Of a stretch of 64,000 bases of DNA, positions 9,641-36,648 are shown piece after piece (the first letter of the stretch is position 1; the number at the start of each line of letters is the position of its first letter). The notes beneath the pieces are model-generated. The model made no database searches, was not told the DNA's origin, and saw only the letters and a list, made by a program, of their open reading frames with translations. The stretch comes from Escherichia phage UPEC01. Position numbers and translations under genes: made by a program. The stretch lies in the sequence record MW233709. One strand, written 5' to 3'.

Positions 9641-9689
9641 GATTCCATACTGAGTTACACAATAAACCAACTGTTAAAAGGAAAACCAT

Positions 9690-11719: not shown

Positions 11720-12073
11720 ATGAGTTATTATAATTTTCTGAATTTTGAACTGGCGAGCAATAATGATGGTAATGCTCATTATGAATTTCGTGAGCCACGG
11801 TTTAATCAAGCGATTGGTTATATTATCGTCAAAGATGATGTTATCATAAAGGCTCGCTCATTTATGGTAATGAATGGACCTTATGAAGATACTCGCGGCT
11901 ATCCATTTGATAAAAAGAATGTGCGCGATTGTGCAGCATGGATAACCGGAAACCCCGAAATTGGGGTCATGATATCTACTGAAGCGAATGACATTCTGGA
12001 AGGGGCTTGGGTCAAAGCTCAAGAACAGTCTGTTGACGACCAGATTTTTAATGCCTTCATGAAGCGAGGTTAA
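11720..12073 (+). CDS. hypothetical protein (117 aa)
   Basis: ORF; C-terminal 13 aa identical to that of the preceding ORF. Confidence 0.5.
   Translation: MSYYNFLNFELASNNDGNAHYEFREPRFNQAIGYIIVKDDVIIKARSFMVMNGPYEDTRGYPFDKKNVRDCAAWITGNPEIGVMISTEANDILEGAWVKAQEQSVDDQIFNAFMKRG
12032..12068 (+). repeat. 37-bp direct repeat copy 2
   Basis: identical to 11677-11713. Confidence 0.9.
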
Positions 12074-19579: not shown

Positions 19580-20904
19580 TTAAATTTGAAGACTTGAACA
19601 CAGGACAAAAAGAAGCTTTTGATTATATCACTGAAGCTATTCAGCGACGTTCAGGGGAATGTATCACTCTGAATGGTCCAGCTGGTACAGGTAAGACCAC
19701 TCTGACAAAATTTGTCATTGACCATCTAGTGCGTAATGGAGTTATGGGAATTGTGCTTGCTGCGCCAACTCACCAGGCGAAAAAAGTTTTATCTAAATTG
19801 TCTGGTCAAACCGCGAATACAATCCATAGTATCCTGAAGATTAACCCGACCACATATGAAGACCAAAACGTTTTTGAACAACGCGAAATGCCTGACATGT
19901 CAAAATGCAATGTTCTGGTTTGTGATGAAGCAAGTATGTATGACGGGTCTCTGTTTAAGATTATTCTTAACTCTGTTCCTGAATGGTGTACTATTCTTGG
20001 GATTGGTGATATGCACCAGCTGCAGCCAGTTGACCCAGGAAGCACACAACAAAAGATAAGCCCATTCTTTACGCATCCTAAGTTCAAACAGATTCATCTG
20101 ACTGAGGTCATGCGAAGCAATGCTCCTATCATTGAAGTGGCGACAGAAATTCGTAATGGTGGTTGGTTCCGTGACTGTATGTATGATGGTCATGGTGTAC
20201 AGGGTTTCACCTCACAAACCGCTTTAAAGGATTTCATGATAAACTATTTCAGTATTGTAAAAGATGCTGATATGTTGATGGAAAACAGGATGTATGCGTA
20301 CACGAATAAATCAGTTGAAAAACTGAACAATATTATTCGTCGCAAGCTCTATGAAACGGATAAAGCATTTTTACCGTATGAAGTCCTGGTTATGCAAGAG
20401 CCACACATGAAAGAGCTGGAATTTGAAGGCAAGAAATTCAGCGAAACCATTTTTAATAATGGTCAGTTGGTTCGCATCAAGGATTGCAAATACACTTCCA
20501 CAATTCTCCGTTGTAAAGGTGAATCGCACCAGTTAGTGATTAATTACTGGGACCTGGAAGTTGAGTCAATTGATGAAGATGAAGAATATCAGGTTGACCG
20601 CATCAAAGTTTTACCAGAAGACCAGCAACCGAAATTCCAGGCATATCTGGCTAAAGTTGCTGACACATACAAACAGATGAAAGCCGCTGGTAAACGTCCA
20701 GAGTGGAAAGACTTCTGGAAAGCTCGCCGGACCTTCTTGAAAGTTCGGGCTCTTCCGGTCAGTACAATCCACAAGGCCCAGGGCGTTTCAGTAGACAAAG
20801 CATTCATCTATACCCCATGCATCCATATGGCCGAAGCTTCATTAGCGAGCCAGTTGGCTTATGTTGGAATCACACGAGCGAGGTACGACGCATATTATGT
20901 ATAA
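19576..20904 (+). CDS. dda: Dda DNA helicase (SF1)
   Basis: 442 aa; NGPAGTGKTT Walker A, strong similarity to T4 Dda throughout. Confidence 0.95.
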   Translation: MIKFEDLNTGQKEAFDYITEAIQRRSGECITLNGPAGTGKTTLTKFVIDHLVRNGVMGIVLAAPTHQAKKVLSKLSGQTANTIHSILKINPTTYEDQNVFEQREMPDMSKCNVLVCDEASMYDGSLFKIILNSVPEWCTILGIGDMHQLQPVDPGSTQQKISPFFTHPKFKQIHLTEVMRSNAPIIEVATEIRNGGWFRDCMYDGHGVQGFTSQTALKDFMINYFSIVKDADMLMENRMYAYTNKSVEKLNNIIRRKLYETDKAFLPYEVLVMQEPHMKELEFEGKKFSETIFNNGQLVRIKDCKYTSTILRCKGESHQLVINYWDLEVESIDEDEEYQVDRIKVLPEDQQPKFQAYLAKVADTYKQMKAAGKRPEWKDFWKARRTFLKVRALPVSTIHKAQGVSVDKAFIYTPCIHMAEASLASQLAYVGITRARYDAYYV

Positions 20905-21142
20905 AGTACATAAAGAAGATTTAGATAATCTTATCTACGGTATTCAGGACGCGGTTGAATTTTTCGAAGATAATTCGACTATCGTCGTGCAGGGTAATTA
21001 CGTTTTACTGGAACTGAATCTTATTCGGAAACGTATGGCCGCGATTGAATATTTTAACAATGAAGAGCCAGGGATTTTTATCTCTGATTATGTTGCTGGT
21101 GAAATTCAGAAATTAAAAGAGATGTGCGATGGTTGCTGGTGA
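20897..21142 (+). CDS. hypothetical protein (81 aa); C-terminus altered by 40-bp tandem duplication
   Basis: Start ATG 20897 overlapping dda stop; alternative start 20861. Confidence 0.4.
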   Translation: MYKVHKEDLDNLIYGIQDAVEFFEDNSTIVVQGNYVLLELNLIRKRMAAIEYFNNEEPGIFISDYVAGEIQKLKEMCDGCW

Positions 21143-21172
21143 AATTCAGAAATTAAAAGAGATGTGTGATGA
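21093..21172 (+). repeat. 40-bp tandem duplication (2 copies, 1 mismatch)
   Basis: gttgctggtgaaattcagaaattaaaagagatgtg(c/t)gatg x2 at the ORF 20897 / dexA junction. Confidence 0.9.
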
Positions 21173-21852
21173 TTGATGCTATTATTGACTTTGAAACTCT
21201 GGGAAACGGCTCGAAGGGAGCCGTTATTGACCTGGCGCTGATTACATTCGAATCTGACCCTGCTATTGTGGAATCGTTCGAAACCCTGGTTAATCGCGGC
21301 AAACGCATTAAGTTTAGTCTCGAATACCAAAAAGGAAAACGTCTGTTTGATACAACAACCATGGGTTGGTGGAAAAAGCAATCAGCAGAAGCTCGTGTTA
21401 ACCTGACTCCTTCTGCACATGATGTTGATACTCTGACCGGTATCCAACAGGCGATTGACTATCTGAATGGTAATGGAATTAACAAATACGAAAGCCTTAT
21501 GTGGTGCCGTGGGATGTCTTTTGACTTCCCGTTGTTTGTTGACCTTATCCGCGACCTACAGCGCAATGAGGGGATTCCTGAGCGTGAATTGAATACCTAT
21601 AACCTGGAGCCGGTTGTATTCTGGAACCAGCGAGATATCAGGACAGCCATCGAAGCCTTGTCACTCGTCCGTAAGATGTGTGAAACCCCATTACCGAAAG
21701 GGACTTTAGATGGATTTGTGGCGCACGATTCGGTACATGACTGCGCGAAAGATATTTTGATGTTGAAGTATGCCCAGCGCTATGCTCTTGGTTTAGATGA
21801 AGTTCCTTCCGAAGAAGATGCAGACCCATTATCTTTGCCGAAAAAACGATAA
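21169..21852 (+). CDS. dexA: exonuclease A (DexA)
   Basis: 227 aa; IIDFETLG DEDD-type exonuclease start, size and position as T4 dexA. Confidence 0.8.
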   Translation: MIDAIIDFETLGNGSKGAVIDLALITFESDPAIVESFETLVNRGKRIKFSLEYQKGKRLFDTTTMGWWKKQSAEARVNLTPSAHDVDTLTGIQQAIDYLNGNGINKYESLMWCRGMSFDFPLFVDLIRDLQRNEGIPERELNTYNLEPVVFWNQRDIRTAIEALSLVRKMCETPLPKGTLDGFVAHDSVHDCAKDILMLKYAQRYALGLDEVPSEEDADPLSLPKKR

Positions 21853-21858
21853 AAAGTA

Positions 21859-21888
21859 GTGTACAAGGCCAATGGAAAGAGACATAAT
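21859..21888 (+). promoter_or_regulatory. early-type promoter
   Basis: AAAAAGTAGTGTACAA-N16-CATAAT then leader CATCAACTACTGATGAGGATAACAAAATG. Confidence 0.5.
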
Positions 21889-21919
21889 CATCTCATCAAC
21901 TACTGATGAGGATAACAAA

Positions 21920-22177
21920 ATGATTACTTCTTTTGAAATTGGCCAACAATATGAAATGTCCGCTCTTCAAGCTGCTGAAGCAGGTCTGACTAAAGCGTTT
22001 GAATGTGCATTTGCAAATATTCGTGGTAAAATCTTTACTGTCAATAAAATTGCGGTATATGATAAAGAAACTGATATGAACAAAGGCATCTACCTGAACG
22101 TGTCAAATGCAAAAGGTCGTCGTGAAATTATGGTTGTACAACCTAATCAACTGGCGATGTTCAATAAGGTTGCATAA
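21920..22177 (+). CDS. hypothetical protein (85 aa)
   Basis: Start ATG 21920 after conserved leader; track start 21872 lies inside the promoter/leader. Confidence 0.5.
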   Translation: MITSFEIGQQYEMSALQAAEAGLTKAFECAFANIRGKIFTVNKIAVYDKETDMNKGIYLNVSNAKGRREIMVVQPNQLAMFNKVA

Positions 22178-22932
22178 TGAAACCAGAATTTATTGACTTT
22201 GATGTTGTAAGTATGTATGTTCGCCCAATTAAACCATTAAAACTTGAGAAACAAAATATGACTATTGAAATTAACAAAACTTATCAACTGATTGAACCTA
22301 TTATTCAAAACGCAGCTATGGTTTCTGGGTATAATACTCTGACTGATGCTTTAGGTGAAGGTGAATTTATTGTTGAAACTTTTGTAAAAAGTAACTGGTT
22401 TGATAAAGCATATATTCTACATGCACGTCGCCTTGATACAAATGAAGTAGAAAAAATTATGGTTTATGAAGCTGAGATTGAACTCTTCAAAGAAGTTGAA
22501 GAAACTCCTATCAAAGTTGGTAAAACCTATCAGCTTATTGAAGATGATAGTCAGTTTGGAAAGACTGTCGCAATGCATGCTGGTTGGCGGGTACTGAAAG
22601 GTATTTTTGGATTTGCTCCATTTACCGTTAAAACAGTTAAGTACCACAATCACCAAAGCATCTTTGAATTTACTGCAGTCAATGAATCAGGTGACAATCT
22701 TGAAGCTATCCTTTATCCGCGTGAATCTGTGCTGCTGGAAGAAGTTAGCGAGCTTGGCGACCCTATTGACTTGCTATGTAAACCAGTTCAAATCAAACGC
22801 CCATTTAACAGTTCCATTTGTGGTTGGGTAACAGACCAGTGGATTGAAGATGGTGTTGAACTCCTGAACGTTGTTCATTGTGGTAGTTTTACTGTTGTAC
22901 CACGTTCCATGGTTGTTGAAATTTTTAATTAA
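22177..22932 (+). CDS. hypothetical protein (251 aa), paralog family with 23009
   Basis: Internal repeat (KTYQLIE twice); C-terminal ...TDQWIEDGVELLNVVH.GSFTVVP. Confidence 0.55.
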   Translation: MKPEFIDFDVVSMYVRPIKPLKLEKQNMTIEINKTYQLIEPIIQNAAMVSGYNTLTDALGEGEFIVETFVKSNWFDKAYILHARRLDTNEVEKIMVYEAEIELFKEVEETPIKVGKTYQLIEDDSQFGKTVAMHAGWRVLKGIFGFAPFTVKTVKYHNHQSIFEFTAVNESGDNLEAILYPRESVLLEEVSELGDPIDLLCKPVQIKRPFNSSICGWVTDQWIEDGVELLNVVHCGSFTVVPRSMVVEIFN

Positions 22933-22936
22933 ATTT

Positions 22937-22966
22937 GTGTACAAACTCGTGGGGCCAGAGTATAAT
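22937..22966 (+). promoter_or_regulatory. early-type promoter with -10 inside a palindrome
   Basis: GTGTACAA ... gtggggccagagTATAATggtcccac. Confidence 0.5.
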
Positions 22967-23008
22967 GGTCCCACTGGAGAATAAACTTATTAATCAAGAG
23001 AGAAAATT

Positions 23009-23500
23009 ATGAAAGTTGAAGCTGGTGATATTGTACGCGTTTCTAAAGAATCTCGTTCTAAAGCTGCTGGTCGTTTTGTTGAGGTTGTGGGTCTTCGCAC
23101 TAATTTAGTAGGTGGAATTAAAGAAGTTAAAGTGCGTATTATTCCTAAAAATGGCCAGACTGAAACTCAATTGGCTTATGTACATCCTAAATTCCTGGAA
23201 TCAACTGAATTTACTGGATATATCGCTCCTGTGGTTGAAGAAGTTGAAACCATTGACCAGTCTCATGTTGGGGTTGATTTTAAATGGAAATTAGGTAAAG
23301 GTGTCTTTTTCGTTTCACCTAAACCGTTTGAATACAATTGCAAGTATGGTCCGACTTATGAAACCACTAGCATGTCTGGTTATATCACAGACCAGTGGGT
23401 TGAAGAAGGGGTTAAACTGTATAATATTGTGTTCCTTGGAACCTTTAAGGTTGTTCCTGAAAGTTTTATCGTTGAGTATGCTGATATTCATTTTGCCTAA
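23009..23500 (+). CDS. hypothetical protein (163 aa), paralog of 22177 C-terminal domain
   Basis: ...TDQWVEEGVKLYNIVFLGTFKVVP. Confidence 0.55.
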   Translation: MKVEAGDIVRVSKESRSKAAGRFVEVVGLRTNLVGGIKEVKVRIIPKNGQTETQLAYVHPKFLESTEFTGYIAPVVEEVETIDQSHVGVDFKWKLGKGVFFVSPKPFEYNCKYGPTYETTSMSGYITDQWVEEGVKLYNIVFLGTFKVVPESFIVEYADIHFA

Positions 23501-23550
23501 ATTATAAAATAATGATAGGGTAATTTTGCCCTATCAATGAGGAGAATATT

Positions 23551-23781
23551 ATGTTTAATGAAGATTGCGTGACCACTTCCCTGACCGCTGAAGAGTTCTG
23601 GGAAACCGCTGAAAGTGATAAAGTGATTGTTAAGAAAAACATCAATGAATTTCTTTGCACCACTGATATCATTTATGTGTATGCGTATGAAGGCGCGGAA
23701 TTACCTAGCTATGCACTGTTCCGTGAAGAATCAGAAGATGGCACAGATTTTTGGAAGGAGACTTATCATGTTGAAATTTGA
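23551..23781 (+). CDS. hypothetical acidic protein (76 aa)
   Basis: ORF with GAGGAG RBS. Confidence 0.45.
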   Translation: MFNEDCVTTSLTAEEFWETAESDKVIVKKNINEFLCTTDIIYVYAYEGAELPSYALFREESEDGTDFWKETYHVEI

Positions 23782-24142
23782 AACTGATAAATGGTATTAT
23801 TTTAAAGATAATGTTGCTGAAAGCAGATTTCGTTTGTTATGCTCTGATAATGATAATATAGCTGATGCTATAATCAATGGTGAAGGATTTAGACCAGTCG
23901 GAATTGAAGGTGGTGATGTATATCGGATAGAATTTTCGACCGGTGGAATAGAGAGAATATTCATAAAGGAAGATGAGCGTCGTTTCTTTGAAGAAGAAAA
24001 AGATGACGATACTGAAGACGAATGCGAAGACGCTGATGAAGCATTTGAACCAAGCGAATTCCCTTTGACTAAAATCACCATTTCTAATAACTCTGAAGCC
24101 TGGACCGTTTACCAGATGTTGAAAGCACACTTTAAGGAATAA
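23768..24142 (+). CDS. hypothetical protein with strongly acidic C-terminal segment
   Basis: 124 aa from ATG 23768; EEEKDDDTEDECEDADEAFEPSEFP. Confidence 0.45.
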   Translation: MLKFETDKWYYFKDNVAESRFRLLCSDNDNIADAIINGEGFRPVGIEGGDVYRIEFSTGGIERIFIKEDERRFFEEEKDDDTEDECEDADEAFEPSEFPLTKITISNNSEAWTVYQMLKAHFKE

Positions 24143-24143
24143 C

Positions 24144-24320
24144 ATGCCACTTTATGATTACAAATGCCAATCCAATGACTGCGCGAAAGAATACGAAAAA
24201 ATCAAGAAAATCTCTGAAAGAGATAATGATGTTTGCCCTGATTGCCATCGGCTGGCTGTTCGGTTAGTCTCGGCTCCTAAACATGTTAATGGCGGTTTTT
24301 ACGACCTGCTGACTAAGTGA
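24144..24320 (+). CDS. zinc-ribbon protein (FmdB-like CxxC...CxxC)
   Basis: 58 aa MPLYDYKCQSNDC...CPDCH. Confidence 0.5.
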   Translation: MPLYDYKCQSNDCAKEYEKIKKISERDNDVCPDCHRLAVRLVSAPKHVNGGFYDLLTK

Positions 24321-24326
24321 GGAATT

Positions 24327-24587
24327 ATGAAATACATTAATCGTTCTATTGCAGCACTGGTACTGGCGGTTTCATTGGCTGGTTGTACTGATGCAGATAA
24401 TGCCATTCGTGTATTAGATGCAAACGGCTATGAGCAAATCCAAATCACCGGATATAATTGGTTCTCTTGCGGTAAAGATGATTTTCAACACACAGGTTTT
24501 ACAGCCGTGGGCCCAACTGGTAAGAAAGTTGAAGGAACCGTTTGTTCTGGATTGCTGTTTAAGAATTCAACCATCCGATTCGAATGA
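24327..24587 (+). CDS. putative lipoprotein (86 aa)
   Basis: Signal peptide and lipobox LAGC. Confidence 0.5.
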   Translation: MKYINRSIAALVLAVSLAGCTDADNAIRVLDANGYEQIQITGYNWFSCGKDDFQHTGFTAVGPTGKKVEGTVCSGLLFKNSTIRFE

Positions 24588-24594
24588 GGATATT

Positions 24595-24993
24595 ATGTTT
24601 AAAATTGGAAAGAGTTATTGCATTAAAGATTTAGATGGCTTCCTTAAACATGTCGGTATGCCTGGTAGCATTTTGAACCAACAAGGAACCTCTATCATTG
24701 ATTTGGTTACTACCAAAGAGTTTTCAGTCACTAAGATGGAAGCAAATGTTGTTACGGAATTTAGTACTATAGATGGAACTGGATTTTCTTTCCATAGTCG
24801 TAATGGAACCGGTCTTATTTTTGGTGATGAATTTAAATATTTTGAAGAAGTCCCGGAATGTGATTCTGAAATAACCGAACAGGAATCAAAAGAGGATATC
24901 GTTGTTACCGGCGGCGATGTTATTATTACGGTTAAAACTGAAGCCGGCCGTCTACAAGCTATTAAAATGTTAGAGCAGCTTCGATTCAAATAA
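24595..24993 (+). CDS. hypothetical protein (132 aa)
   Basis: Start ATG 24595 with GAGGA RBS; track start 24418 overlaps previous gene. Confidence 0.5.
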   Translation: MFKIGKSYCIKDLDGFLKHVGMPGSILNQQGTSIIDLVTTKEFSVTKMEANVVTEFSTIDGTGFSFHSRNGTGLIFGDEFKYFEEVPECDSEITEQESKEDIVVTGGDVIITVKTEAGRLQAIKMLEQLRFK

Positions 24994-25012
24994 AAGGCCT
25001 TCGGGCCTTTTT
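24993..25012 (+). terminator. intrinsic terminator hairpin
   Basis: aaaggccttcgggcctttttg. Confidence 0.65.
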
Positions 25013-25036
25013 GCTTTAAAATATGTGACTTATAAT
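25010..25036 (+). promoter_or_regulatory. candidate middle promoter (MotA box TTTGCTTTA + TATAAT) for gene 39
   Basis: TGCTT 14 nt upstream of TATAAT; T4 gene 39 is MotA-dependent. Confidence 0.5.
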
Positions 25037-25058
25037 ACCTCCATACACAAGAGGAAAG

Positions 25059-26891
25059 ATGATGATTAATAATGAAATTAAAGTACTCTCGGACGTCGAG
25101 CATATCAAAAAACGTTCCGGGATGTATATTGGTTCCAGTTCAAATGAAGCGCATGAGCGATTCTTGTTTGGTGAATATAAGTCTGTAAGCTATGTTCCTG
25201 GTATTGTAAAACTGATTGATGAAATTATCGATAACTCTGTTGATGAAGCAATTCGCACCAGTTTTAAATTTGCCAATAAAATTGATGTTCAAATTAAAGA
25301 TAATCAGATTTCGGTTTCTGATAATGGTCGTGGTATTCCTCAAGCAATGGTTACAGACCAAAACGGTGAACAAATCCCTGGCCCTGTTGCAGCATGGACT
25401 ATTCCAAAAGCCGGTGGCAACTTCGGTGATGATGCTGAACGTAAAACTGGCGGGATGAATGGTGTCGGGTCTTCTCTGACCAATATTTTCTCTGTATTGT
25501 TCACCGGGATTACCTCTGATGGAGCAAACGAAATTACTGTTAACTGCTCCAACGGTATGGAAAACAAAGGTTGGTCCACCAAGAAATCTAAGGGCAAAGG
25601 TACAACTGTTATATTTGTTCCAGATTTTAGTCACTTTGAAGAAAATAGTCTGTCCCAGATTTATCTGGATATTACATTGGACCGTTTACAGACTCTCGCG
25701 GTTGTTTATCCGGATATTCAGTTCACCTTTAATGGTAAAAAGGTTGATGGTAATTTCAAGAAGTTCTCCAAGCAATTCGGAACCGAAGTTGTTATCCAGG
25801 AAACTGATACAGTATCAATGGCTTTTACGACCAGCCCGGATGGTTTCCGTCAGTTGACTTATGTCAACAACATTCATACAAAGAATGGCGGACACCACGT
25901 TGAATGTGTTATGGATGATATCTGTGAACACCTTCAGCCTGCGATTAAGCGCAAATATAAAGGCATCGAGGTGACCAAGGCACGAGTTAAAGAATGCCTC
26001 ACCATGCTTATGTTCATCCGCGATATGAGCAACATGCGATTTGATTCCCAGACCAAGGAGCGATTGACTTCTCCGGCTGGTGAAATTCGAAATCACATTA
26101 AGATTGATGCTAAGAAAATCGCACAAGCTATTCTGAAAAATGAACCGCTGATTATGCCGATTGTTGAAGCTGCATTGGCTCGTAAATTGGCTGCAGAGAA
26201 AGCAGCAGAGACCAAGGCGAATAAGAAAGCTTCGAAGGCCAAGGTGCAGAAACACATCAAGGCAAACGAATGGGGCAATGATAAGCTGGAAACGACTCTA
26301 TTCCTGACCGAAGGGGATTCTGCAACTGGTCCATTTATCAAGGTTCGCGACCGTGAATTGCAAGGTGCTTATCCATTACGTGGTAAGTTTAAAAACACAT
26401 GGGGTCTGAAAGCTGTTGAAGTTATGAAGAACGCTGAAGCCTTTGATGTGTGTGCAATTACTGGGTTAACGATTGGACAACCGGCCGAGAATATGAATTA
26501 CCGAAACATTGCTATCATGACAGATGCGGATGTGGATGGTGTCGGTAGTATCTATCCATCGTTATTGGCGTTTTTCAGTAACTGGCCAGAGTTGTTCCAT
26601 GAAGGACGAATTCGCTTTGTGAAAACACCTGTTATTATTGCACAGCTCAAAGATAAACAAGAATGGTTCTATTCTCTTCCTGACTATGAAGAAGCTAAGG
26701 ATAAACTTCCGAAGCACACCATCCGATATATCAAGGGGCTTGGTTCTCTGGAAGATTCCGAGTACAAACGCGTATTGCTCGAACCGGTATTCGAAGTTGT
26801 TCAATTGCCCGACAACTGGAAAGAACTGTTCGAAATGCTATTCGGTAAAGATTCCCAGCAGCGTAAAGACTGGATGAATGCGACGCTATAA
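25059..26891 (+). CDS. 39: DNA topoisomerase II large subunit (gp39 fused with gp60 region; GyrB-like)
   Basis: 610 aa; GHKL ATPase motifs (IDNSVDEA, GMNGVGSS), TOPRIM region; continuous ORF without gene 60 split. Confidence 0.93.
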   Translation: MMINNEIKVLSDVEHIKKRSGMYIGSSSNEAHERFLFGEYKSVSYVPGIVKLIDEIIDNSVDEAIRTSFKFANKIDVQIKDNQISVSDNGRGIPQAMVTDQNGEQIPGPVAAWTIPKAGGNFGDDAERKTGGMNGVGSSLTNIFSVLFTGITSDGANEITVNCSNGMENKGWSTKKSKGKGTTVIFVPDFSHFEENSLSQIYLDITLDRLQTLAVVYPDIQFTFNGKKVDGNFKKFSKQFGTEVVIQETDTVSMAFTTSPDGFRQLTYVNNIHTKNGGHHVECVMDDICEHLQPAIKRKYKGIEVTKARVKECLTMLMFIRDMSNMRFDSQTKERLTSPAGEIRNHIKIDAKKIAQAILKNEPLIMPIVEAALARKLAAEKAAETKANKKASKAKVQKHIKANEWGNDKLETTLFLTEGDSATGPFIKVRDRELQGAYPLRGKFKNTWGLKAVEVMKNAEAFDVCAITGLTIGQPAENMNYRNIAIMTDADVDGVGSIYPSLLAFFSNWPELFHEGRIRFVKTPVIIAQLKDKQEWFYSLPDYEEAKDKLPKHTIRYIKGLGSLEDSEYKRVLLEPVFEVVQLPDNWKELFEMLFGKDSQQRKDWMNATL

Positions 26892-26894
26892 ATA
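26887..26894 (+). promoter_or_regulatory. late promoter TATAAATA
   Basis: Exact consensus overlapping gene 39 stop, followed by 20-bp palindrome. Confidence 0.45.
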
Positions 26895-26933
26895 GATACG
26901 GGAGAATATTCTCCCGTCTTATAGGAGAAGTCC

Positions 26934-27086
26934 ATGAAAAAGTGGTGGGTTACGTTGTCAAATGGCGAATACGGTTATCTGTGGGCCGATACTAAACCCC
27001 TGTTTGCATCCTTTGTCACCATTATGTGCGAGACCTGGGATGGTGAATACTATACCGCGTATGGGCAAGTCTATAAAGTTGAGTAG
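26934..27086 (+). CDS. hypothetical protein (50 aa)
   Basis: ORF with AGGAGAAG RBS. Confidence 0.35.
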   Translation: MKKWWVTLSNGEYGYLWADTKPLFASFVTIMCETWDGEYYTAYGQVYKVE

Positions 27087-27088
27087 CC

Positions 27089-27112
27089 AAAAGGACCTTC
27101 GGGTCCTTTTTT
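27089..27112 (+). terminator. intrinsic terminator hairpin
   Basis: aaaaggaccttcgggtcctttttt. Confidence 0.65.
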
Positions 27113-27288
27113 ATTATGTACAAGCCATAAAAATTGCGTTAAGATGTCCTTGAGGTGAAAATATGATTATGTCTGACGGAAGTTTAGTTAATCTACATTT
27201 TTTATTATGTACAAGCCATAAAAATTGCGTTAAGATGTCCTTGAGGTGAAAATATGATTATGTCTGACGGAAGTTTAGTTAATCTACA
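27107..27288 (+). repeat. perfect 91-bp tandem duplication (2 copies) covering promoter, RBS and first 12 codons
   Basis: 27107-27197 identical to 27198-27288. Confidence 0.95.
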
Positions 27289-27538
27289 GAATGTTGCTCG
27301 TTGTATTATGGAAGCAGGCCTGAGGAAGGTGCAGGAGCTCCCAGATAGCGACAGGAAGCGAAGTTACTTGTTGGCTGTAAGAGCATCAGCCATGAGCATT
27401 AAGGCTGGCCAGAAGGTTCCTGAGGAGCGAATTGAAGCACTCCTTGCATTGATATACCATGGCCAAGAACATAAAGCTACCATGCGTAGTATGAGAAAAA
27501 TATTACAGGAGATTGGAAATGACGAACTTCAAAGTTAA
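27254..27538 (+). CDS. hypothetical protein (94 aa)
   Basis: Starts in second copy of the 91-bp duplication; first copy gives a truncated 28-aa ORF (27163-27249). Confidence 0.5.
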   Translation: MIMSDGSLVNLQNVARCIMEAGLRKVQELPDSDRKRSYLLAVRASAMSIKAGQKVPEERIEALLALIYHGQEHKATMRSMRKILQEIGNDELQS

Positions 27539-27722
27539 TATGGAACTGTTTGATAAGGCTATCCATAAAGAGTACCGTGTTATCCAACGATTTTTTGATA
27601 TAAGAGAAGCTGAAGAGTTTAAAGAACGCTTCAAAGAAATCCGTATTAAAATAGCTTCAGACACCGCAACAAAGGATGAACTTCTTGAAGTTGCAGAATT
27701 AATCAAACGTAACATAAAGTGA
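27513..27722 (+). CDS. hypothetical protein (69 aa)
   Basis: ORF with AGGAG RBS; alternative start 27540. Confidence 0.4.
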   Translation: MEMTNFKVNMELFDKAIHKEYRVIQRFFDIREAEEFKERFKEIRIKIASDTATKDELLEVAELIKRNIK

Positions 27723-27729
27723 GAAAAAC

Positions 27730-29964
27730 ATGATTTTAGAAACTGAAAAGGAAACAATCCTTGGTAATGGTGCCAAGGCATCAGCATTCACAATCCAGGC
27801 ATCTCCAAAGGTGTTTAAGATTCTGACCAGCGACCTTTATACAAACAAGGTGCGTGCGGTTGTTCGTGAGCTGATTACCAATATGATTGATGCTCATATG
27901 CTCAATGGTTGTCAGGATAAATTCATTGTGCAAGCTCCTGGTGAACTGGACCCACGTTTTGTATGCCGTGACTTTGGTCCGGGTATGAGTGATTTCCAGA
28001 TTCGTGGTGATGAAAATACCCCAGGTCTGTATAACAGTTTCTTTGCATCATCCAAGGCTGAATCCAACGATTTTATTGGCGGCTTTGGTCTGGGCTCTAA
28101 ATCTCCGTTCAGTTATACAGAGACGTTTAGCCTGATTTCATATCACGATGGTCAAGTTAATGGTTATGTCGCTTATATGGACGGCGATGGCCCACAGATT
28201 AAACCAACCTTTAGCGAACCAATGAAACCTGGTGACCGCACGGGGATTGAAGTTGTTGTCCCGGTTGATAGTAATGATTTTGGTAAGTTCCGCTACGAGA
28301 TTGCATATATCATGCGTCCATTTGCTGGACTGGCTGAAGTGCAAGGCGTAAGCGAAATTGAATACTTCCCGGAATTTGATGATTATTATGCTCCAGAGCG
28401 TATTAATTATAGCAGCCCAGAACGTTATGGTCTTTATGCAATTTACGGTGGAATTGTTTATCCAATTGCCGACGGTTATACAAAGAAAACCTGGATGACT
28501 GCCAAAAACGATGTTGTCTTTATTAAGTTCCCGATGGGTTCGTTGGATATTGCACCTTCTCGCGAAGCATTATCACTGGATAAACGTACGGTCGCAAATA
28601 TCGTTGAACGTATTGAATCCCTTGATAAGAAAGTCATGGAAGATGATTGTAAGAAATGGCAGGAATCAGAATGTATCCGCCACACGTATCGCGAATTACA
28701 GAGTCTGAGTTATGAAGCTCGTAATTTTCTGAAAGCTCGTAATGCTGAAACGAAATTTACGAAATCGCAATTGACCTTTAACCAGATGTATGAAATGTTC
28801 GAGCTGGACAAAGACCTTATTAATGCCGGGGTTGTCTATGATATCTATAGCACTACCCGTCTGAAACGTCTGCGTAACTCAAGCTCGAACACGAATACTG
28901 CAAGTCTGACGAGCATGTTTGGTATTCAGAATAATACCTTGAACATTGTTATTGACGATGCTAAAGGGCGAATTGCGATGATTCGTGGTATCAGTTCAAT
29001 GCTATATGACACCAGCGCGAAAGCCAAAAAGCTCAAAGCATCTGGTAAAGTCCCGACTGTACAAGGTAGTAGTCTATTGTTCGTTGACCCAACCAGCGAA
29101 ATTCAAACACGTCTGATGGTTCAACTTCAAGAACGATTTAAAGGCGATACAGTTAATATCTATCGTACGTCTGAACTGACCGCCCTTGTAAAAGACTGGA
29201 TTCCGGTTGCTGACCCGAAAGCGCGCGTTAAGTCAAAGACTCCATCATTGATTCGTTGGACTAAAACTAATGGCAAATGGCAGTCTGTTGAAGAATTTAC
29301 ATGTGCAGCTGATGCAGAGGAAATCGATGGTTATGCTGTATTCATTAACCGCAGTAGCATTTCCCCGTTGAATCAAGAATATGGCACCACGACCTTCGGG
29401 ACCCAGACATTGTGTAAACTGGCAAACCTGTTGGAAATCAATGAATTCTGTGTTATTCGTCCACAGCTTCAGAAAAAGATTACCAAGCTGGCGCAGTGTG
29501 ATTGTCTGATTGAAGCTGCAGTCAATCGTTATGTGGAATTGATTGATGCGGTTGATGCGGACCAGTACATTGCCGCTTCAAGCCGTTCGCGTTATTATAT
29601 TCCTATCCTGTCTGAATATGCAGAACTGAATTTTATGTTCAAGTATTTTTATGCAAAAGATGTTCAGAAAGATGTGAATACTGACTATGCCGAATTAATG
29701 CAGTTCAATAAGTTCTTTGCTTATAACGCATATAACAGTGGAACAGTTGATAAGACCATGCAGGAAACTCTGGTCCTTTGTAATAAGATTTATGACGACC
29801 TGACCAAAAACGCTTCGGTAACAAGCGATAAAATGGTTTTTGAATTTGAAAAGAATCACCCGATTGTTTCACACTTTTTATATAACCGTAACGCCATGTC
29901 AACTGAACAAGTACAGAACGTTGCTCAAATCATGAAGGCCGTGGAAGCGGCCAATAAGGAATAA
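27730..29964 (+). CDS. rIIA: rIIA protein (GHKL-ATPase-like N-terminus)
   Basis: 744 aa; Bergerat-fold motifs ELITNMIDA, DFGPGMS, GGFGLGSKS; position between 39 and rIIB as T4. Confidence 0.8.
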   Translation: MILETEKETILGNGAKASAFTIQASPKVFKILTSDLYTNKVRAVVRELITNMIDAHMLNGCQDKFIVQAPGELDPRFVCRDFGPGMSDFQIRGDENTPGLYNSFFASSKAESNDFIGGFGLGSKSPFSYTETFSLISYHDGQVNGYVAYMDGDGPQIKPTFSEPMKPGDRTGIEVVVPVDSNDFGKFRYEIAYIMRPFAGLAEVQGVSEIEYFPEFDDYYAPERINYSSPERYGLYAIYGGIVYPIADGYTKKTWMTAKNDVVFIKFPMGSLDIAPSREALSLDKRTVANIVERIESLDKKVMEDDCKKWQESECIRHTYRELQSLSYEARNFLKARNAETKFTKSQLTFNQMYEMFELDKDLINAGVVYDIYSTTRLKRLRNSSSNTNTASLTSMFGIQNNTLNIVIDDAKGRIAMIRGISSMLYDTSAKAKKLKASGKVPTVQGSSLLFVDPTSEIQTRLMVQLQERFKGDTVNIYRTSELTALVKDWIPVADPKARVKSKTPSLIRWTKTNGKWQSVEEFTCAADAEEIDGYAVFINRSSISPLNQEYGTTTFGTQTLCKLANLLEINEFCVIRPQLQKKITKLAQCDCLIEAAVNRYVELIDAVDADQYIAASSRSRYYIPILSEYAELNFMFKYFYAKDVQKDVNTDYAELMQFNKFFAYNAYNSGTVDKTMQETLVLCNKIYDDLTKNASVTSDKMVFEFEKNHPIVSHFLYNRNAMSTEQVQNVAQIMKAVEAANKE

Positions 29965-29965
29965 T

Positions 29966-30940
29966 ATGTTTAATATCAAATGTATGTCTAAAGCCGAACA
30001 AGCTGATGTGGTCCAGATGTATTCAACGGGCAATTATACCCAGCCTGAATTGGCAGAATATTTTGCTGTGTCCGTTGACACCATTCGCCGCGTTTTGAAA
30101 AATGATAAAGAATCAAAATTAGCTAAAACCATTTCTGCATCACTGAAAGCAGCTGTTGGTGTGGCGATTAATGCTCCGGTGACAGTAACGGTTGAAGTCC
30201 CGGTTGTTGAAGATACAATCGGTGGAAGCCGCCCGGAAATCGTATGGAACGCATCGAGTAAATTCGTTTCCATCACTGAAGGCCGTACAGTCTGGAACGC
30301 AACAAAAGACCATAAACACTTTGATGATATTATTCAGGCATTGATTGAATTCCGTTATGAAGATGCTATTGAGTATATCTCAATCAAAGCCGCGGTGCAA
30401 AAATATGTGAAAGGTGATGTGCGTATTGAAGGTGGTAGTCTGTTCTATCAGGGAATTGAACTGCGCTCTGGTTTGGTTACTCGTATCATCGATTCAATGC
30501 AAAATGGCGAAGACTTTGAATTCTATCTGCCATTCCTTGAAAATCTCCTTGAGAACCCAAGCGAAAAAGCAGTACAACGTTTGTTTGACTTCCTGGTTGC
30601 GAATGATATCGAAATCACCGAAGACGGTCATTTCATCGCATGGAAAATGGTTCGTTCAACCTACAAAGATTGTCACTCAAACACATTCGACAACAGTCCT
30701 GGTCAATATGTTAAAATGCCACGCTCTCGTGTGAATGACAATGACGAACAGACCTGTTCAACTGGGCTGCACGTTTGTTCTAAAGGTTATATCGGAAGTG
30801 GTTTTGGTCATGGTGATGGGCGCATCGTATCCTGTAAAGTTCACCCGCGTGATGTTGTAAGTATCCCGGTAGATTATAACGATTCCAAAATGAGGGTCTG
30901 TGGTTACCTGGTTCTTGATGATGTAACTGAACAATTTTAA
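29966..30940 (+). CDS. rIIB: rIIB protein
   Basis: 324 aa; N-terminus MFNIKCMSKAEQADVVQMYSTGNYTQPELAEYFAVSVDTIRRVLKN matches T4 rIIB. Confidence 0.85.
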   Translation: MFNIKCMSKAEQADVVQMYSTGNYTQPELAEYFAVSVDTIRRVLKNDKESKLAKTISASLKAAVGVAINAPVTVTVEVPVVEDTIGGSRPEIVWNASSKFVSITEGRTVWNATKDHKHFDDIIQALIEFRYEDAIEYISIKAAVQKYVKGDVRIEGGSLFYQGIELRSGLVTRIIDSMQNGEDFEFYLPFLENLLENPSEKAVQRLFDFLVANDIEITEDGHFIAWKMVRSTYKDCHSNTFDNSPGQYVKMPRSRVNDNDEQTCSTGLHVCSKGYIGSGFGHGDGRIVSCKVHPRDVVSIPVDYNDSKMRVCGYLVLDDVTEQF

Positions 30941-30973
30941 ATTAATCGGGGCTTCGGCCCCTAATGAGGCTTT

Positions 30974-31171
30974 ATGTTAGGTTTCCAAGCACGTGTAGTT
31001 GAAGAGTATGACCAGCTGGTTTTGAAAATTAACGCTCTTGAAGAGTTTATTAAGGGTGGAGTTTTTGAAACTCTCGATGCTCGTCAACAAGGTCTTTTGA
31101 ATGCCCAGTTAGATGCAATGAGTGCTTATGCTCATGTACTGGCAATTCGTATCTCTTATTTTGGTGAATAA
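30974..31171 (+). CDS. hypothetical protein (65 aa)
   Basis: ORF after GGGGCTTCGGCCCC hairpin. Confidence 0.45.
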   Translation: MLGFQARVVEEYDQLVLKINALEEFIKGGVFETLDARQQGLLNAQLDAMSAYAHVLAIRISYFGE

Positions 31172-31174
31172 ATT

Positions 31175-31444
31175 ATGATTAAGCATTTCAATGTGTCAGA
31201 CCGTGACATCAAAGTTTCAAATCTCCGGGGTCACCATTACGCAGGAATAGTTTACTGTGGTAAGCTCATTAAGCATGAAGGTGATGTTCACTATGGCTGG
31301 TTGGAATGTGATGAAGTAGTTGTTGGGGAATTCCCTGACCCGGATTCTGATACATTTGATGCTAATGACCGTTTGTACTATGGCGAGCTTCATATCCGAG
31401 GAATCGTCGGTATCGATGAGGTTCAAGATGATTCAGAAGAGTAA
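31175..31444 (+). CDS. hypothetical protein (89 aa)
   Basis: ORF. Confidence 0.45.
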   Translation: MIKHFNVSDRDIKVSNLRGHHYAGIVYCGKLIKHEGDVHYGWLECDEVVVGEFPDPDSDTFDANDRLYYGELHIRGIVGIDEVQDDSEE

Positions 31445-32021
31445 AACATGGGAGCATCTGAAAAAGATGCCCTCCTTTCTTTATACAAAGGAAGACTTAA
31501 CCCCCGAATCCCTGCAAAAGATTGTAGATACAGCCAGGTATTCATTGCGTAAAGACCCGGGTCAGGACCGTGAGCAAGTCATGCAAAGATGTATGGTGGC
31601 TACAATGGCTGAACAAGCTATTGCTAAATGGACTTCAGGTTTTTTATGCGGCGGCGACGAAGATTACGATAATCCTTATTCCTTTGCATTTGATGTAGTT
31701 TCGAAAGAAGGGGTGAGAATCGAAGTCAAGACACATCAATCTGGCTCCAAATGGATATCCGTGCATACTGGTCACCAGGGTGATTATCCACATGGTTACG
31801 GGGTCAATCTTGGTCCTTTTATGCAACACAAGCTTGCCGACCTTATGATTATGTTCAATGTAAAAGAGACTATCAAAGGGTATAGATTTAAACCAAAATT
31901 CCTTGCTGGACCTGGTGCTTTCGTTCCTGAGTCTGGTCTTGTGCAGAAGTCACAAGGGGATGGCTGGTACCTCCGTTCTTGTTCAGAAGAAAAATTTCCC
32001 TATCACCGGTTTACAAGCTGA
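31428..32021 (+). CDS. putative PD-(D/E)xK-like nuclease (DenB/endonuclease IV candidate by position)
   Basis: 197 aa from ATG 31428; FAFDVVSKEGVRIEVKTHQ resembles D...E.K motif; T4 denB lies next to rIIB. Confidence 0.4.
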   Translation: MIQKSKTWEHLKKMPSFLYTKEDLTPESLQKIVDTARYSLRKDPGQDREQVMQRCMVATMAEQAIAKWTSGFLCGGDEDYDNPYSFAFDVVSKEGVRIEVKTHQSGSKWISVHTGHQGDYPHGYGVNLGPFMQHKLADLMIMFNVKETIKGYRFKPKFLAGPGAFVPESGLVQKSQGDGWYLRSCSEEKFPYHRFTS

Positions 32022-32068
32022 ACCAACCATGTAATAATGTCCTCATACCAACAAATGAGGACATTATC

Positions 32069-32344
32069 ATGGAACACGTTACTACTCATCACATCAAACA
32101 AATTCTTATTCAAGCACTCAAAAACAACAACATCAATTTTCCAACCCATGAAATTTTTGATGTGTTATTCAACGAAGTCCAGGGTCAAGTTGCATATTAT
32201 GACGTTATCGTTTATCTTTCAGAATTTGAAGTCTACCACCTGACTGAAATTGCTTTCTATCTCTATCGTGGGACTGCAGATTTTACTGGGGTCGTGAATG
32301 CAGTTGGCGCATATAAAGAAGTTAAAGAACAAATGCACAATTAA
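32069..32344 (+). CDS. hypothetical protein (91 aa)
   Basis: ATG 32069; SD lies within a 13-bp inverted repeat. Confidence 0.45.
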   Translation: MEHVTTHHIKQILIQALKNNNINFPTHEIFDVLFNEVQGQVAYYDVIVYLSEFEVYHLTEIAFYLYRGTADFTGVVNAVGAYKEVKEQMHN

Positions 32345-32354
32345 TTAAAAAGTA

Positions 32355-32384
32355 GTGTACATCAGTATGGAGTCTATGTATAAT
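32355..32384 (+). promoter_or_regulatory. early-type promoter
   Basis: AAAAAGTAGTGTACA ... TATAAT then leader GATTCCATACTGAGTTAC. Confidence 0.5.
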
Positions 32385-32418
32385 GATTCCATACTGAGTT
32401 ACCAAACTGGAGAATAAA

Positions 32419-32574
32419 ATGAAACCTGCTCAATATGCAATGACTTTATACCTTGAAGTTAATGGCGATATTACTGAATTTTTTAAATTAATGCAACAGC
32501 GCGGAAAAAGTTTTGCAGTTACTGAGCGTCAATTTTACGCTTGCCGTAAAAATACATACAATCGTTATGCGTGA
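32419..32574 (+). CDS. hypothetical protein (51 aa)
   Basis: ORF with GGAGAATAAAATG leader. Confidence 0.35.
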   Translation: MKPAQYAMTLYLEVNGDITEFFKLMQQRGKSFAVTERQFYACRKNTYNRYA

Positions 32575-32584
32575 GGAAAACAGA

Positions 32585-32851
32585 ATGGATATTAAATTAT
32601 ACTACGCCAAACACAAAGTTACAGGTATGGTTGTTGCTGCTATGTATGATGCGTCAGGTGATGGTGATGATATTACTACAGAATTGTCTCTTTCTGAATG
32701 TAAATTTCTTCGCCCGCTAGTTGCCTCAAAGCGTGATTTAAAAAAGCTTATTGATGGAAAACTGGATAATGTTGATGGCATAGATATTCTTTATGACCTT
32801 CGCACCGCATTGCACAGGGGTCTGATTGAAATAAAAGAGGTGATATTTTGA
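32585..32851 (+). CDS. hypothetical protein (88 aa)
   Basis: ATG 32585 with AGGAAAA RBS. Confidence 0.45.
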   Translation: MDIKLYYAKHKVTGMVVAAMYDASGDGDDITTELSLSECKFLRPLVASKRDLKKLIDGKLDNVDGIDILYDLRTALHRGLIEIKEVIF

Positions 32852-32942
32852 GCAGCAAAACCTGGTGTCTTATCTGGATGTTGTGTATCCCAGTAATTTG
32901 CGTTTGTTTTAGTTTATTATTAATGAAACTTGCATAAAAGAG

Positions 32943-32970
32943 TGTACATCTCCGGTGGTTGTAGTATAAT
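32943..32970 (+). promoter_or_regulatory. early-type promoter
   Basis: AGTGTACA ... TATAAT then CCTATCAACTACTGGAG leader. Confidence 0.5.
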
Positions 32971-32996
32971 GAACCTATCAACTACTGGAGATGATT

Positions 32997-33113
32997 ATGA
33001 AAAAGTTACTTAAAGCCATTTGGAACATGTTTGTACTGTTTGTTGTCCTGAGCATTTTCCCAATTGTTTTTATGATTGACCATGTACGCGTTTACTTTAA
33101 CTATTTCTTTTGA
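32997..33113 (+). CDS. small membrane protein (38 aa)
   Basis: MKKLLKAIWNMFVLFVVLSIFPIVFMI... Confidence 0.3.
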   Translation: MKKLLKAIWNMFVLFVVLSIFPIVFMIDHVRVYFNYFF

Positions 33114-33123
33114 GGATAATATT

Positions 33124-33330
33124 ATGAATTACAATTCACAATTTCAGAAATCTAATCGTCGCTTTGACTTTATGTTCAAGTTTATTGTGGCAATGATTAT
33201 CCTGATTTTCATTGGTGCCATTGCAATGATTGGTTTCCAGCTCTGGATTGCTGCTGAAGTGTTCACACAAATCCAGGATAATGGTTTGAAGTCTGTTGTT
33301 GATGTAATTTGGAATGGTGCTAAGCAATGA
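33124..33330 (+). CDS. small membrane protein (68 aa)
   Basis: ATG 33124 with GAGGA RBS; one TM helix. Confidence 0.45.
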   Translation: MNYNSQFQKSNRRFDFMFKFIVAMIILIFIGAIAMIGFQLWIAAEVFTQIQDNGLKSVVDVIWNGAKQ

Positions 33331-33572
33331 AACTTTTTAAAGACATTGCAGTTGGTGAAAAATTTGTCCTGGGTAATGGTCAACAACTGATTCGCATTTC
33401 GCCTTTAATGGATAACAGTGAGCGCCCTGTGCGTACTGAAAACTGTTTGGATTATCCTTTTTATCAGAAACGTTTTGCAATTGAAAATAATACTGAGTGC
33501 TTCACAGTTGATGAACTGATGGAATCATCAGAAGAAGTTGACTTGTGGGATGGCGCGGTAGATGTAGAATAG
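33327..33572 (+). CDS. hypothetical protein (81 aa)
   Basis: ATGA-coupled ORF. Confidence 0.45.
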   Translation: MKLFKDIAVGEKFVLGNGQQLIRISPLMDNSERPVRTENCLDYPFYQKRFAIENNTECFTVDELMESSEEVDLWDGAVDVE

Positions 33573-33601
33573 TGTACAAACTCATGGGAGCAGAGTATAA
33601 T
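33572..33601 (+). promoter_or_regulatory. early-type promoter
   Basis: GTGTACAA ... gggagcagagTATAATgttccc. Confidence 0.5.
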
Positions 33602-33639
33602 GTTCCCGTGGATAATAAAATTTAATTGAGGAAAATATT

Positions 33640-33984
33640 ATGTCTAAAGTATTTTTTGGTAATCGCAACATTATGTTCTTTAAACAGATTAGCATATCAG
33701 AAGCATTTGATTTAAGTTATTCAGGTGGTACAAAAGCTGTTAACCTTAAAAATTTGATGTCTGCAGAATTTGCATTCTATCAGGACCCTGAAACTGGTTT
33801 CTATAAATTTATTAAGTTCCGCATGACTATGGACCGCGATTATCGCGATGTTTATTATACAAGTTATGAAAGTGTTGTGAATGCAATTCGTGAAGCTTAT
33901 GGGTTGGATTCGTTGTCTCTTGACCGTCTGTATAATGCAAGCCTTTACACCAGTGGATTTATTTTAGAACAACTACAAAAATAG
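33640..33984 (+). CDS. hypothetical protein (114 aa)
   Basis: ORF with GAGGAAAA RBS. Confidence 0.5.
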   Translation: MSKVFFGNRNIMFFKQISISEAFDLSYSGGTKAVNLKNLMSAEFAFYQDPETGFYKFIKFRMTMDRDYRDVYYTSYESVVNAIREAYGLDSLSLDRLYNASLYTSGFILEQLQK

Positions 33985-34013
33985 TGTACAAACTCTTGGG
34001 GTCAGAGTATAAT
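33984..34013 (+). promoter_or_regulatory. early-type promoter with -10 inside palindrome
   Basis: GTGTACAA ... ggggtcagagTATAATgacccc. Confidence 0.5.
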
Positions 34014-34057
34014 GACCCCACTGGAGCACAAAACTTTAACTTACTGAGGAAATTAAT

Positions 34058-34507
34058 ATGACTACTTACATGACCCGTCGTGACGTACTGAATGCTGGTG
34101 CTACCACTGTTGCTTATATCCATAATGGTAATTATGTTGCCGGTCGCCCAACTAAAGAAGCTATCGCTCAACCAGGTTTTTATTTCGTGGTTAAAGGTGA
34201 AGGCGAATCACGTATTGTTGCTGCACGTTTTTATGTTGGTAACCAACGTTCACAACAAGGGTTTGACACTGTATTAAGTCACATCCGCAAACAACGTTCA
34301 CAATTGTCTCGCACAATGGCGAACAATGGTGTTATCTATGAAGTCCTGTTTGTTCCAGTTTCTAAAATGAAACCCCTGACAACTGGTTATGGTAAAGGTC
34401 AAATTGCGATGGCGTTCACTCGCTCACATAGTTCTGATTGCCAGACCCTTTCAGAAATGAATCGCATGCTTGCTGATAACTTTAAATTCATTCTGCAGAG
34501 CTATTAA
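34058..34507 (+). CDS. hypothetical protein (149 aa; Ndd candidate by size/position)
   Basis: T4 ndd (151 aa) lies between denB and stp/ac; sequence not verified. Confidence 0.4.
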
Positions 34508-34508
34508 T

Positions 34509-34682
34509 ATGAGACATTTCTTTACAATGGGTTACCTATTTGTTTTAGCCCTATTTGTTATTACAGGAGCCTTTATAGCCTTTGGTGCTCCATTTAATGA
34601 TAAAGTTGCTGTTACTATGTGCTTTAGTGGTGGGTATATCTGTTTTGAACGCTTATGCAAAATGTGTGGTATATATGAGTAA
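34509..34682 (+). CDS. small membrane protein (57 aa)
   Basis: ATG 34509 ([25 protein letters not shown]). Confidence 0.35.
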
Positions 34683-34755
34683 TTTCCATAACGAACATGT
34701 GATGCAATGGCATCGTCATAATCTGAAATTAACCGGCGTCTTCGGACGTCCTTGA
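34675..34755 (+). CDS. stp: Stp-like 26-aa peptide
   Basis: [26 protein letters not shown]; matches my recollection of T4 Stp (26 aa) in sequence, length and position next to ac/52. Confidence 0.55.
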
Positions 34756-34762
34756 GGAAAAT

Positions 34763-34918
34763 ATGAATAAATTTGTTCATGGTGTAGCTTTTTTCTGCTG
34801 GTCATTTTTATTTGTTGGAACATTAATAACTGGTGAAACTTCAGTATTTCTGCAGTCAACAGCTCAAGGTGTATTAGCAGTTTTATCACTATTTAAATTA
34901 TTGGATAAAAATGATTAA
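34763..34918 (+). CDS. small membrane protein (51 aa; ac-like by size/position)
   Basis: GAGGAAAA RBS; hydrophobic. Confidence 0.4.
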   Translation: MNKFVHGVAFFCWSFLFVGTLITGETSVFLQSTAQGVLAVLSLFKLLDKND

Positions 34919-35051
34919 GAAAATCCTGGGCTACTCGTTAGCCCTTGCTGCCTTATTGGTGGCGCTGTATTACGGAGTTGTGTTTGCGTTAGTGCAGGTT
35001 GTGCTTTTTATTTCTGATGCTATAATGGCGGTACATTCGTTAATCTGGTAA
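34911..35051 (+). CDS. small membrane protein (46 aa)
   Basis: overlapping ORF, hydrophobic. Confidence 0.3.
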   Translation: MIKKILGYSLALAALLVALYYGVVFALVQVVLFISDAIMAVHSLIW

Positions 35052-35059
35052 GGTGATAT

Positions 35060-36439: not shown

Positions 36440-36534
36440 GTTTTGGAGTTGAGTTTGCATTGCTTTGTATTTTCGCGGCAATCGCAGGTGTGATTGTTGG
36501 TATGTTTATTGGTAATAAGATAGATAAAGACTAG
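36436..36534 (+). CDS. small membrane protein (32 aa)
   Basis: ATGA-coupled to gp52 stop. Confidence 0.3.
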   Translation: MSFGVEFALLCIFAAIAGVIVGMFIGNKIDKD

Positions 36535-36555
36535 GACCCTTCGGGGTCCTTTTTT
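36533..36555 (+). terminator. intrinsic terminator hairpin
   Basis: aggacccttcggggtcctttttt. Confidence 0.65.
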
Positions 36556-36569
36556 ATTTTAAAAAAGTA

Positions 36570-36599
36570 GTGTACAAACCCCTTGTCTTAGGACATAAT
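36570..36599 (+). promoter_or_regulatory. early-type promoter
   Basis: AAAAAAGTAGTGTACAA-N16-CATAAT then GATTCCATACTGAGTTAC. Confidence 0.5.
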
Positions 36600-36648
36600 G
36601 ATTCCATACTGAGTTACACAATGAATCACAAAAACTTTGGAGAATAAA

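Follow-up and report, generated by a model that had tools for sequence, protein, structure and literature searches.

T4-type phage genomes are circularly permuted, and a de Bruijn-graph assembler therefore yields a 'circular' contig from them, the last bases of which repeat the first. Untrimmed overlaps of k-mer length in such contigs, as produced by SPAdes and similar programs, are one of several described systems with which a 91-bp tandem repeat in Escherichia phage UPEC01 can be compared. The repeat lies at positions 27107–27288 of the window, that is, of the whole 64,000-nucleotide stretch of sequence record MW233709 that was analysed here. Like these overlaps, it is perfect, has no microhomology at its junction, and is found neither in relatives nor in an independent assembly. 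Unlike them, it is internal, lying at least 27 kb from the ends of the window, so that the comparison presupposes an extra re-linearisation step. A length set by the assembler fits the 91 bp found at the ends of a sister record, UPEC07, but 91 is not a default k of SPAdes, whose largest default value for 150-bp reads is 77.

A precedent for an internal repeat of this kind is available from the przondovirus 'Tokugawa', where a 79-bp repeat in a short-read-only assembly was proved to be an artefact (PMC10438801). The two cases are alike in that each repeat is short, exact, and internal, stems from a SPAdes-based short-read assembly, and is gone on independent assembly. They differ in phage family and in repeat length, and the 'Tokugawa' case was settled by hybrid assembly with long reads.

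The window also offers a tandem repeat of a different character. At 21092–21171, two copies of a 40-bp unit, distinguished by one C/T difference, span the region from the 3' end of a dexA.2-like open reading frame (ORF; 20861–21142) to the start of dexA (21166 onwards). In some relatives, which have two copies, the match to this region is a single piece of 601 nt; in others, which have one copy, it consists of two pieces and covers 561 nt. The repeat has the look of a genuine tandem duplication, established at the boundary between two genes. Like the 91-bp repeat, it is arranged head-to-tail and takes in a gene boundary. However, the 40-bp repeat occurs in several independent genomes, shows one base of divergence between its copies, and breaks an assembly made with k=31; none of these three things is true of the 91-bp repeat.

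Lastly, T4-type phages reportedly carry promoter-early stem-loop (PeSL) regulatory cassettes (described, it is said, by Arbiol et al. in 2010). The single-copy form of the present locus would resemble these, as it appears to consist of a terminator stem-loop followed by an early-type promoter, placed between early genes. This likeness concerns the underlying locus and not the duplication, for which PeSL-mediated recombination is neither needed nor indicated. A similar arrangement of a terminator and a TGTACA promoter recurs at 36540–36600 and 53540–53600.

Two dispersed repeats were also observed in the window. A 44-bp exact repeat, CCCCTTGTCTTAGGACATAATGATTCCATACTGAGTTACACAAT, is found at 9612–9663 and 36571–36622, directly after a TGTACA -35-like hexamer in both places. 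It comprises two copies of one early-promoter cassette with its leader, the second of which follows a terminator hairpin, and a mobile regulatory cassette of the PeSL type is a possible interpretation. The other, GTTGACGACCAGATTTTTAATGCCTTCATGAAGCGAG, is an exact direct repeat of 37 bp with copies at 11677–11713 and 12032–12068, 355 bp apart. Each copy ends just 5' of an ATG, and the pair seems to represent 3' ends conserved between two neighbouring small ORFs that are paralogues.

Genes and regulatory elements at the locus

The locus lies in the early region of a T4-type phage, genus Gaprivervirus. Three of its predicted proteins (the 50-aa, 94-aa, and rIIA products) exactly match proteins of UPEC01. 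The features around the repeat are as follows, all on the plus strand except the junction, which has no strand:

25059–26891, plus strand: gp39-type DNA topoisomerase II large subunit, 610 aa, unsplit (ORF list)
26934–27086, plus strand: 50-aa conserved hypothetical ORF (exact match to QQG30909.1 of UPEC01, also in other Gapriverviruses)
27089–27112, plus strand: intrinsic-terminator-like hairpin, AAAAGGACC-TTCG-GGTCCTTTT, with a T-run (terminator scan)
27107–27197, plus strand: copy 1 of the 91-bp unit (TRF, string identity, relatives, Logan contig, UPEC07 overlap)
27117–27145 and again 27208–27236, plus strand: predicted early-promoter-type element TGTACA-N17-TAAGAT (recurrent motif)
27163–27249, plus strand: 28-aa ORF, or 'decoy' (ORF list)
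27197..27198, no strand: novel junction, ...TTAATCTACA abutting TTTTTTATTA..., the presumed join of a contig end and a contig start
27198–27288, plus strand: copy 2 of the 91-bp unit, running on into the rest of the DUF7367 gene
27254–27538, plus strand: gene for a 94-aa DUF7367 protein (exact match to QQG30911.1 of UPEC01)
27513–27722, plus strand: rIIA.1 homologue, PF24210 T4_RIIA1 (ORF list, Pfam)
27730–29964, plus strand: rIIA, 744 aa (exact match to QQG30913.1 of UPEC01)

The order is thus topoisomerase large subunit, 50-aa ORF, hairpin, repeat, DUF7367 gene, rIIA.1, rIIA, and rIIB. The product of the first gene carries the precomputed Pfam domains HATPase_c, DNA_gyraseB, and TOPRIM_C, and relatives annotate it as the topoisomerase large subunit. 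It is encoded by a single 610-aa ORF without the T4-style gene 39/60 split, and therefore there is no gene-60 bypass element. Without the second copy, the locus is, judging from its sequence, an ordinary and conserved one: a hairpin with its T-run, one early-type promoter, and one Shine–Dalgarno (SD) sequence, followed by the DUF7367 gene, rIIA.1, rIIA, and rIIB. The hairpin stem is maintained across the alignment through compensatory changes, reading GGACC-TTCG-GGTCC in one group and GGTCTCC-TTCG-GGAGACC in VR7, SP18, and P896. Its T-run (27107–27112) is also the opening 6 nt of the 91-bp unit.

The promoter element at the locus, which stands with the SD sequence GAGGTG, is near-invariant across the genus in the alignment. 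It belongs to a set of -35-like and -10-like hexamers, spaced by 16–18 nt, that recur upstream of early genes on the transcribed strand. The general motif, TGTACA-N16-18-(T/C)AtAAT, has 18 plus-strand sites in the window, and 21 when both strands are counted, against 3.6 expected from shuffled sequences. The sites are usually preceded directly by an A-rich stretch. On the strength of these motif counts and of its conservation in the genus, this is evidently the early-promoter type of Gaprivervirus, and the preliminary description was reasonable in calling the element 'early-promoter-like'. A generic sigma-70 scan passed over TGTACA-N17-TAAGAT, which scores 8/12 against a cut-off of 9/12. The scan picked in its place a less plausible pair, TTAAGA-17-TATGAT, which overlaps the start codon. 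The genome-specific motif count is more informative.

Plus-strand examples of the fuller form, (A-rich)GTAG-TGTACA-N16/17-(T/C)ATAAT, were observed at 9612, 10926, 17722, 18457, 21860, 22938, 27117, 32356, 32943, 33573, 33985, 36571, 39330, 53571, 54982, and 63029. The TGTACA motif is often followed by one of two conserved leaders, gattccatactgagtta... or tcctatcaactactga....

Several annotations in and around this region are recorded here in their own right. In Yersinia phage vB_YenM_P8, the 94-aa DUF7367 protein goes by the name 'RecA-like recombination protein', and 'zapA' is annotated under the match in EAWsc9. In vB_EcoM_RZ, rIIA is a truncated 424-aa CDS followed by another CDS annotated 'protector from prophage-induced early lysis'. 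Within the window, at about 22177–23500 and upstream of cef, lie two adjoining motB-family paralogues of 251 aa and 163 aa, both PF17613.

The repeat in the deposited sequence

In the deposited sequence, 27107–27288 has a period of 91, 2.0 copies, 100% matches, 0 indels, and a score of 364 (TRF). Direct string comparison of the two 91-mers shows that 27107–27197 and 27198–27288 are the same letter for letter; the identity given in the preliminary description is thus confirmed, and the concern that mismatches might have been overlooked is removed. A 39-nt probe derived from the unit occurs in only two places, both in the repeat, where shuffled sequences lead one to expect none. The borders of the repeat are exact: the left flank ends in ...GGGTCC, the unit runs from TTTTTTATTA to TTAATCTACA, and the right flank begins with GAATGTT. 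There is no microhomology at the junction of the copies, which the 40-mer GGAAGTTTAGTTAATCTACATTTTTTATTATGTACAAGCC would mark.

Each copy contains the TGTACA-N17-TAAGAT element, the SD sequence GAGGTG, and an ATG with 11 further codons (MIMSDGSLVNLH/Q), as had been described. The 28-aa ORF that runs from the first copy into the second is likewise present in the deposited string. It starts at an ATG at 27163 and ends at a TGA at 27247–27249, within the second SD sequence and 4 nt 5' of the ATG at 27254. No counterpart of this ORF is seen in the single-copy relatives in the alignment. A gap in accession numbers at QQG30910, between the 50-aa and 94-aa ORFs, was considered as a trace of an annotated decoy ORF, and this was rejected: in the single-copy UPEC07, too, PHANOTATE places an additional small CDS there.

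Related phages and public collections

A comparison with related phage genomes had been proposed as a check, and it returned the single-copy state in all 33 records, which match about 810 of the 901 nt of the query, in two pieces. TH41 is 100% identical at the locus, yet has a single copy. Direct alignment of TH41 and RZ with the window shows a clean 91-nt gap with flanks identical to those of the window, and VR7, SP18, VR26, DK-13, P896, and UPEC07 are likewise single-copy in the alignment. Occurrence in other isolates and divergence between copies are typical, though not strictly defining, of genuine duplications; here, the count among relatives is 0/33 and the divergence is zero. A sequence search for the junction found no match in IMG/VR, JGI metagenomes, or GTDB genomes. 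This means that there is no independent occurrence in those collections, a result that is uninformative about the reads themselves.

Source phage and an independent assembly of its reads

The announcement of UPEC01 reports a genome of 169,801 bp under MW233709, with SRA experiment SRX12305553 (PMC8928767). The stock had gone through three rounds of plaque purification, libraries were prepared with Nextera XT, and 151-bp paired MiSeq reads were processed with Trim Galore and then assembled with SPAdes 3.11.1, for which default settings are stated and the nominal k is left unstated; PhageTerm was used for the termini (PMC8928767). The BioProject is PRJNA765519.

Exact protein look-ups led to three Logan contigs (k=31) of the run SRR16018663. 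Contigs _163, _171, and _173 correspond to window positions 1–9346, 21137–36562, and 54988–64000, respectively, with 0 mismatches over a total of about 33.7 kb. In comparison, the closest database phages are about 98.4–98.7% identical to the window, and SRR16018663 therefore contains this very phage. The 100% identity, together with the proximity of the accessions, indicates that the run is very probably UPEC01's own read set (SRX12305553).

Contig _171 passes unbroken over the site and holds one copy of the 91-bp unit. The complete set of repeated 31-mers in the window comprises 9620/36579, 11677/12032, 21092/21132, and the 91-bp unit; within the stretch covered by contig _171, only the pair at 21092/21132, at its 5' end, and the 91-bp unit are found. 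The contig starts at 21137, which is the first unique 31-mer past a 35-nt exact tandem repeat (21092–21166), 6 kb upstream of the site. It follows that the k=31 assembly breaks at genuine tandem repeats longer than k. Given the behaviour of de Bruijn-graph assemblers, and with this one repeat as internal control, a fixed perfect 91-bp duplication would likewise have forced a contig break. Since contig _171 has no break at the site, the junction k-mers would be missing from the reads or rare in them. Logan/Minia is expected to keep a loop junction that is present at full coverage. Thus, the independent assembly gives the junction no support, as is expected of an artefact, and it argues, indirectly, against junction molecules being present at about full frequency in the phage DNA.

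The single-copy contig also bears on the idea that the duplication is fixed and very recent, and provides the DUF7367/rIIA operon with a tandem pair of early promoters and with a 28-codon leader ORF. Such a leader, ending inside the SD sequence of the real gene, would permit translational coupling. All of this anatomy is present in the deposited sequence, and the promoter-type motif is a real one that recurs in the genome. However, an assembly that matches the window without a mismatch over 33.7 kb is single-copy here and broken at a genuine tandem repeat 6 kb from the site, each of the 33 relatives has one copy, the junction is without a match in the three collections, and the length is that of the overlap seen in the pipeline. 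A fixed duplication is consequently highly improbable. The proposal in the preliminary description that the real gene has two tandem promoters and a decoy ORF is not supported, on the same evidence, namely the Logan assembly, the 33 single-copy relatives, and the identity in length with the UPEC07 overlap.

End overlaps in sister records

UPEC07 (MW250787.1) comes from the same authors, type of sequencing run, and pipeline as UPEC01, and is a linear 'partial genome' record. The same 91 bp stand, without a mismatch, at its beginning and at its end, and no other length gives an exact match of suffix and prefix. The record starts and ends inside one zinc-ribbon gene, which is hence annotated twice as partial CDSs. 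In the window, the sequence of this overlap is single-copy, at 24210–24300, with 3 substitutions. A naive joining of the end of UPEC07 to its start produces, in comparison with the window, a spurious 91-bp tandem repeat; once the overlap is trimmed, the join and the window are collinear. The pipeline therefore gives circular contigs with a 91-bp overlap, which the authors left untrimmed.

The length of the internal repeat in UPEC01 is thus that of the end overlap in UPEC07, 91 bp, and it is very unlikely that this exact match arose by chance. Elsewhere in the series, UPEC03 has no end overlap and UPEC06 has one of 462 bp, also exact, so the 91-bp signature of the pipeline rests on one sister record, UPEC07. 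The figure of 91 is unexplained by default settings and would appear to be an empirical property of the pipeline, as seen in UPEC07. As for UPEC06 (MW250786.1), its 462-bp exact repeat at both ends could be either a real Vequintavirinae direct terminal repeat or an assembly overlap.

Origin of the second copy

In all likelihood, the second 91-bp copy does not reflect a biological duplication but is the end overlap of a circular contig, assembled from short reads and left untrimmed. In outline, the UPEC pipeline would have produced a contig with an end overlap of 91 bp, and this contig would then have been re-linearised elsewhere without trimming of the overlap, for instance, through re-ordering after PhageTerm, or through manual rotation or joining. 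The old contig end and the old start would thereby have come to lie head-to-tail inside the record as a perfect 91-bp tandem repeat. We infer the rotation or re-linearisation step itself from the internal position of the repeat. One of the copies would then be surplus, and the choice between them is arbitrary, since they are identical. An untrimmed overlap accounts for the zero divergence, the zero microhomology, the exact length of 91 bp, and the absence of the repeat from relatives, from the Logan assembly, and from the collections. Among the causes that the preliminary description had offered for the lack of divergence, an assembly artefact is therefore the one favoured by the UPEC07 overlap and the Logan assembly, while a very recent duplication is disfavoured. 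The artefact almost certainly also gave rise, in the deposited string alone, to the 28-aa 'decoy ORF' and the 'two tandem promoters'.

It is improbable that any part of the UPEC01 stock truly carries the duplication. Such a duplication would have had to arise de novo and without microhomology, to double an early promoter, and to match the UPEC07 overlap in length by coincidence. One form of this idea is a real duplication in a minority of the population, where SPAdes traversed a graph loop once and the k=31 Logan assembly pruned a low-coverage junction. The single-copy Logan contig speaks against a fixed duplication and not against a low-frequency one, and T4-type phages do make short tandem duplications, as the 40-bp repeat at 21092–21171, polymorphic in the genus, illustrates. 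Nevertheless, a minority variant would share the exact 91-bp length of the UPEC07 end overlap by mere coincidence, its junction shows no microhomology, and the stock was plaque-purified three times; it is, therefore, very unlikely. PeSL-mediated recombination and topoisomerase-mediated illegitimate recombination beside gene 39 were considered as mechanisms of a real duplication and set aside given the evidence for an artefact.

Another kind of artefact, in which two contigs with a common 91-bp terminal edge were put together manually or through reference-guided scaffolding with the overlap unmerged, would have the same outcome, a perfect head-to-tail repeat of overlap length, but its likelihood is minimal, as UPEC07 is one contig with a 91-bp overlap between its own two ends, and a circular overlap with rotation is simpler. 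Whether two contigs were joined or one circular contig was rotated is immaterial to the biology.

Implications for the records and for the phage

If the second copy is an untrimmed overlap, then MW233709 (UPEC01) probably exceeds the true length by 91 bp and includes a 28-aa ORF that is spurious. MW250787 (UPEC07) has the same 91 bp at both of its ends and is likewise 91 bp too long. More generally, when a phage genome assembled from short reads shows a perfect, microhomology-free tandem repeat, the first step should be to check it against the end overlaps of sister records produced by the same pipeline and against independent assemblies of its sequencing run. As for the phage itself, it almost certainly has a single promoter and a single gene start at this locus; the repeat is thus without biological weight, and what is flagged here is an error in the public record.
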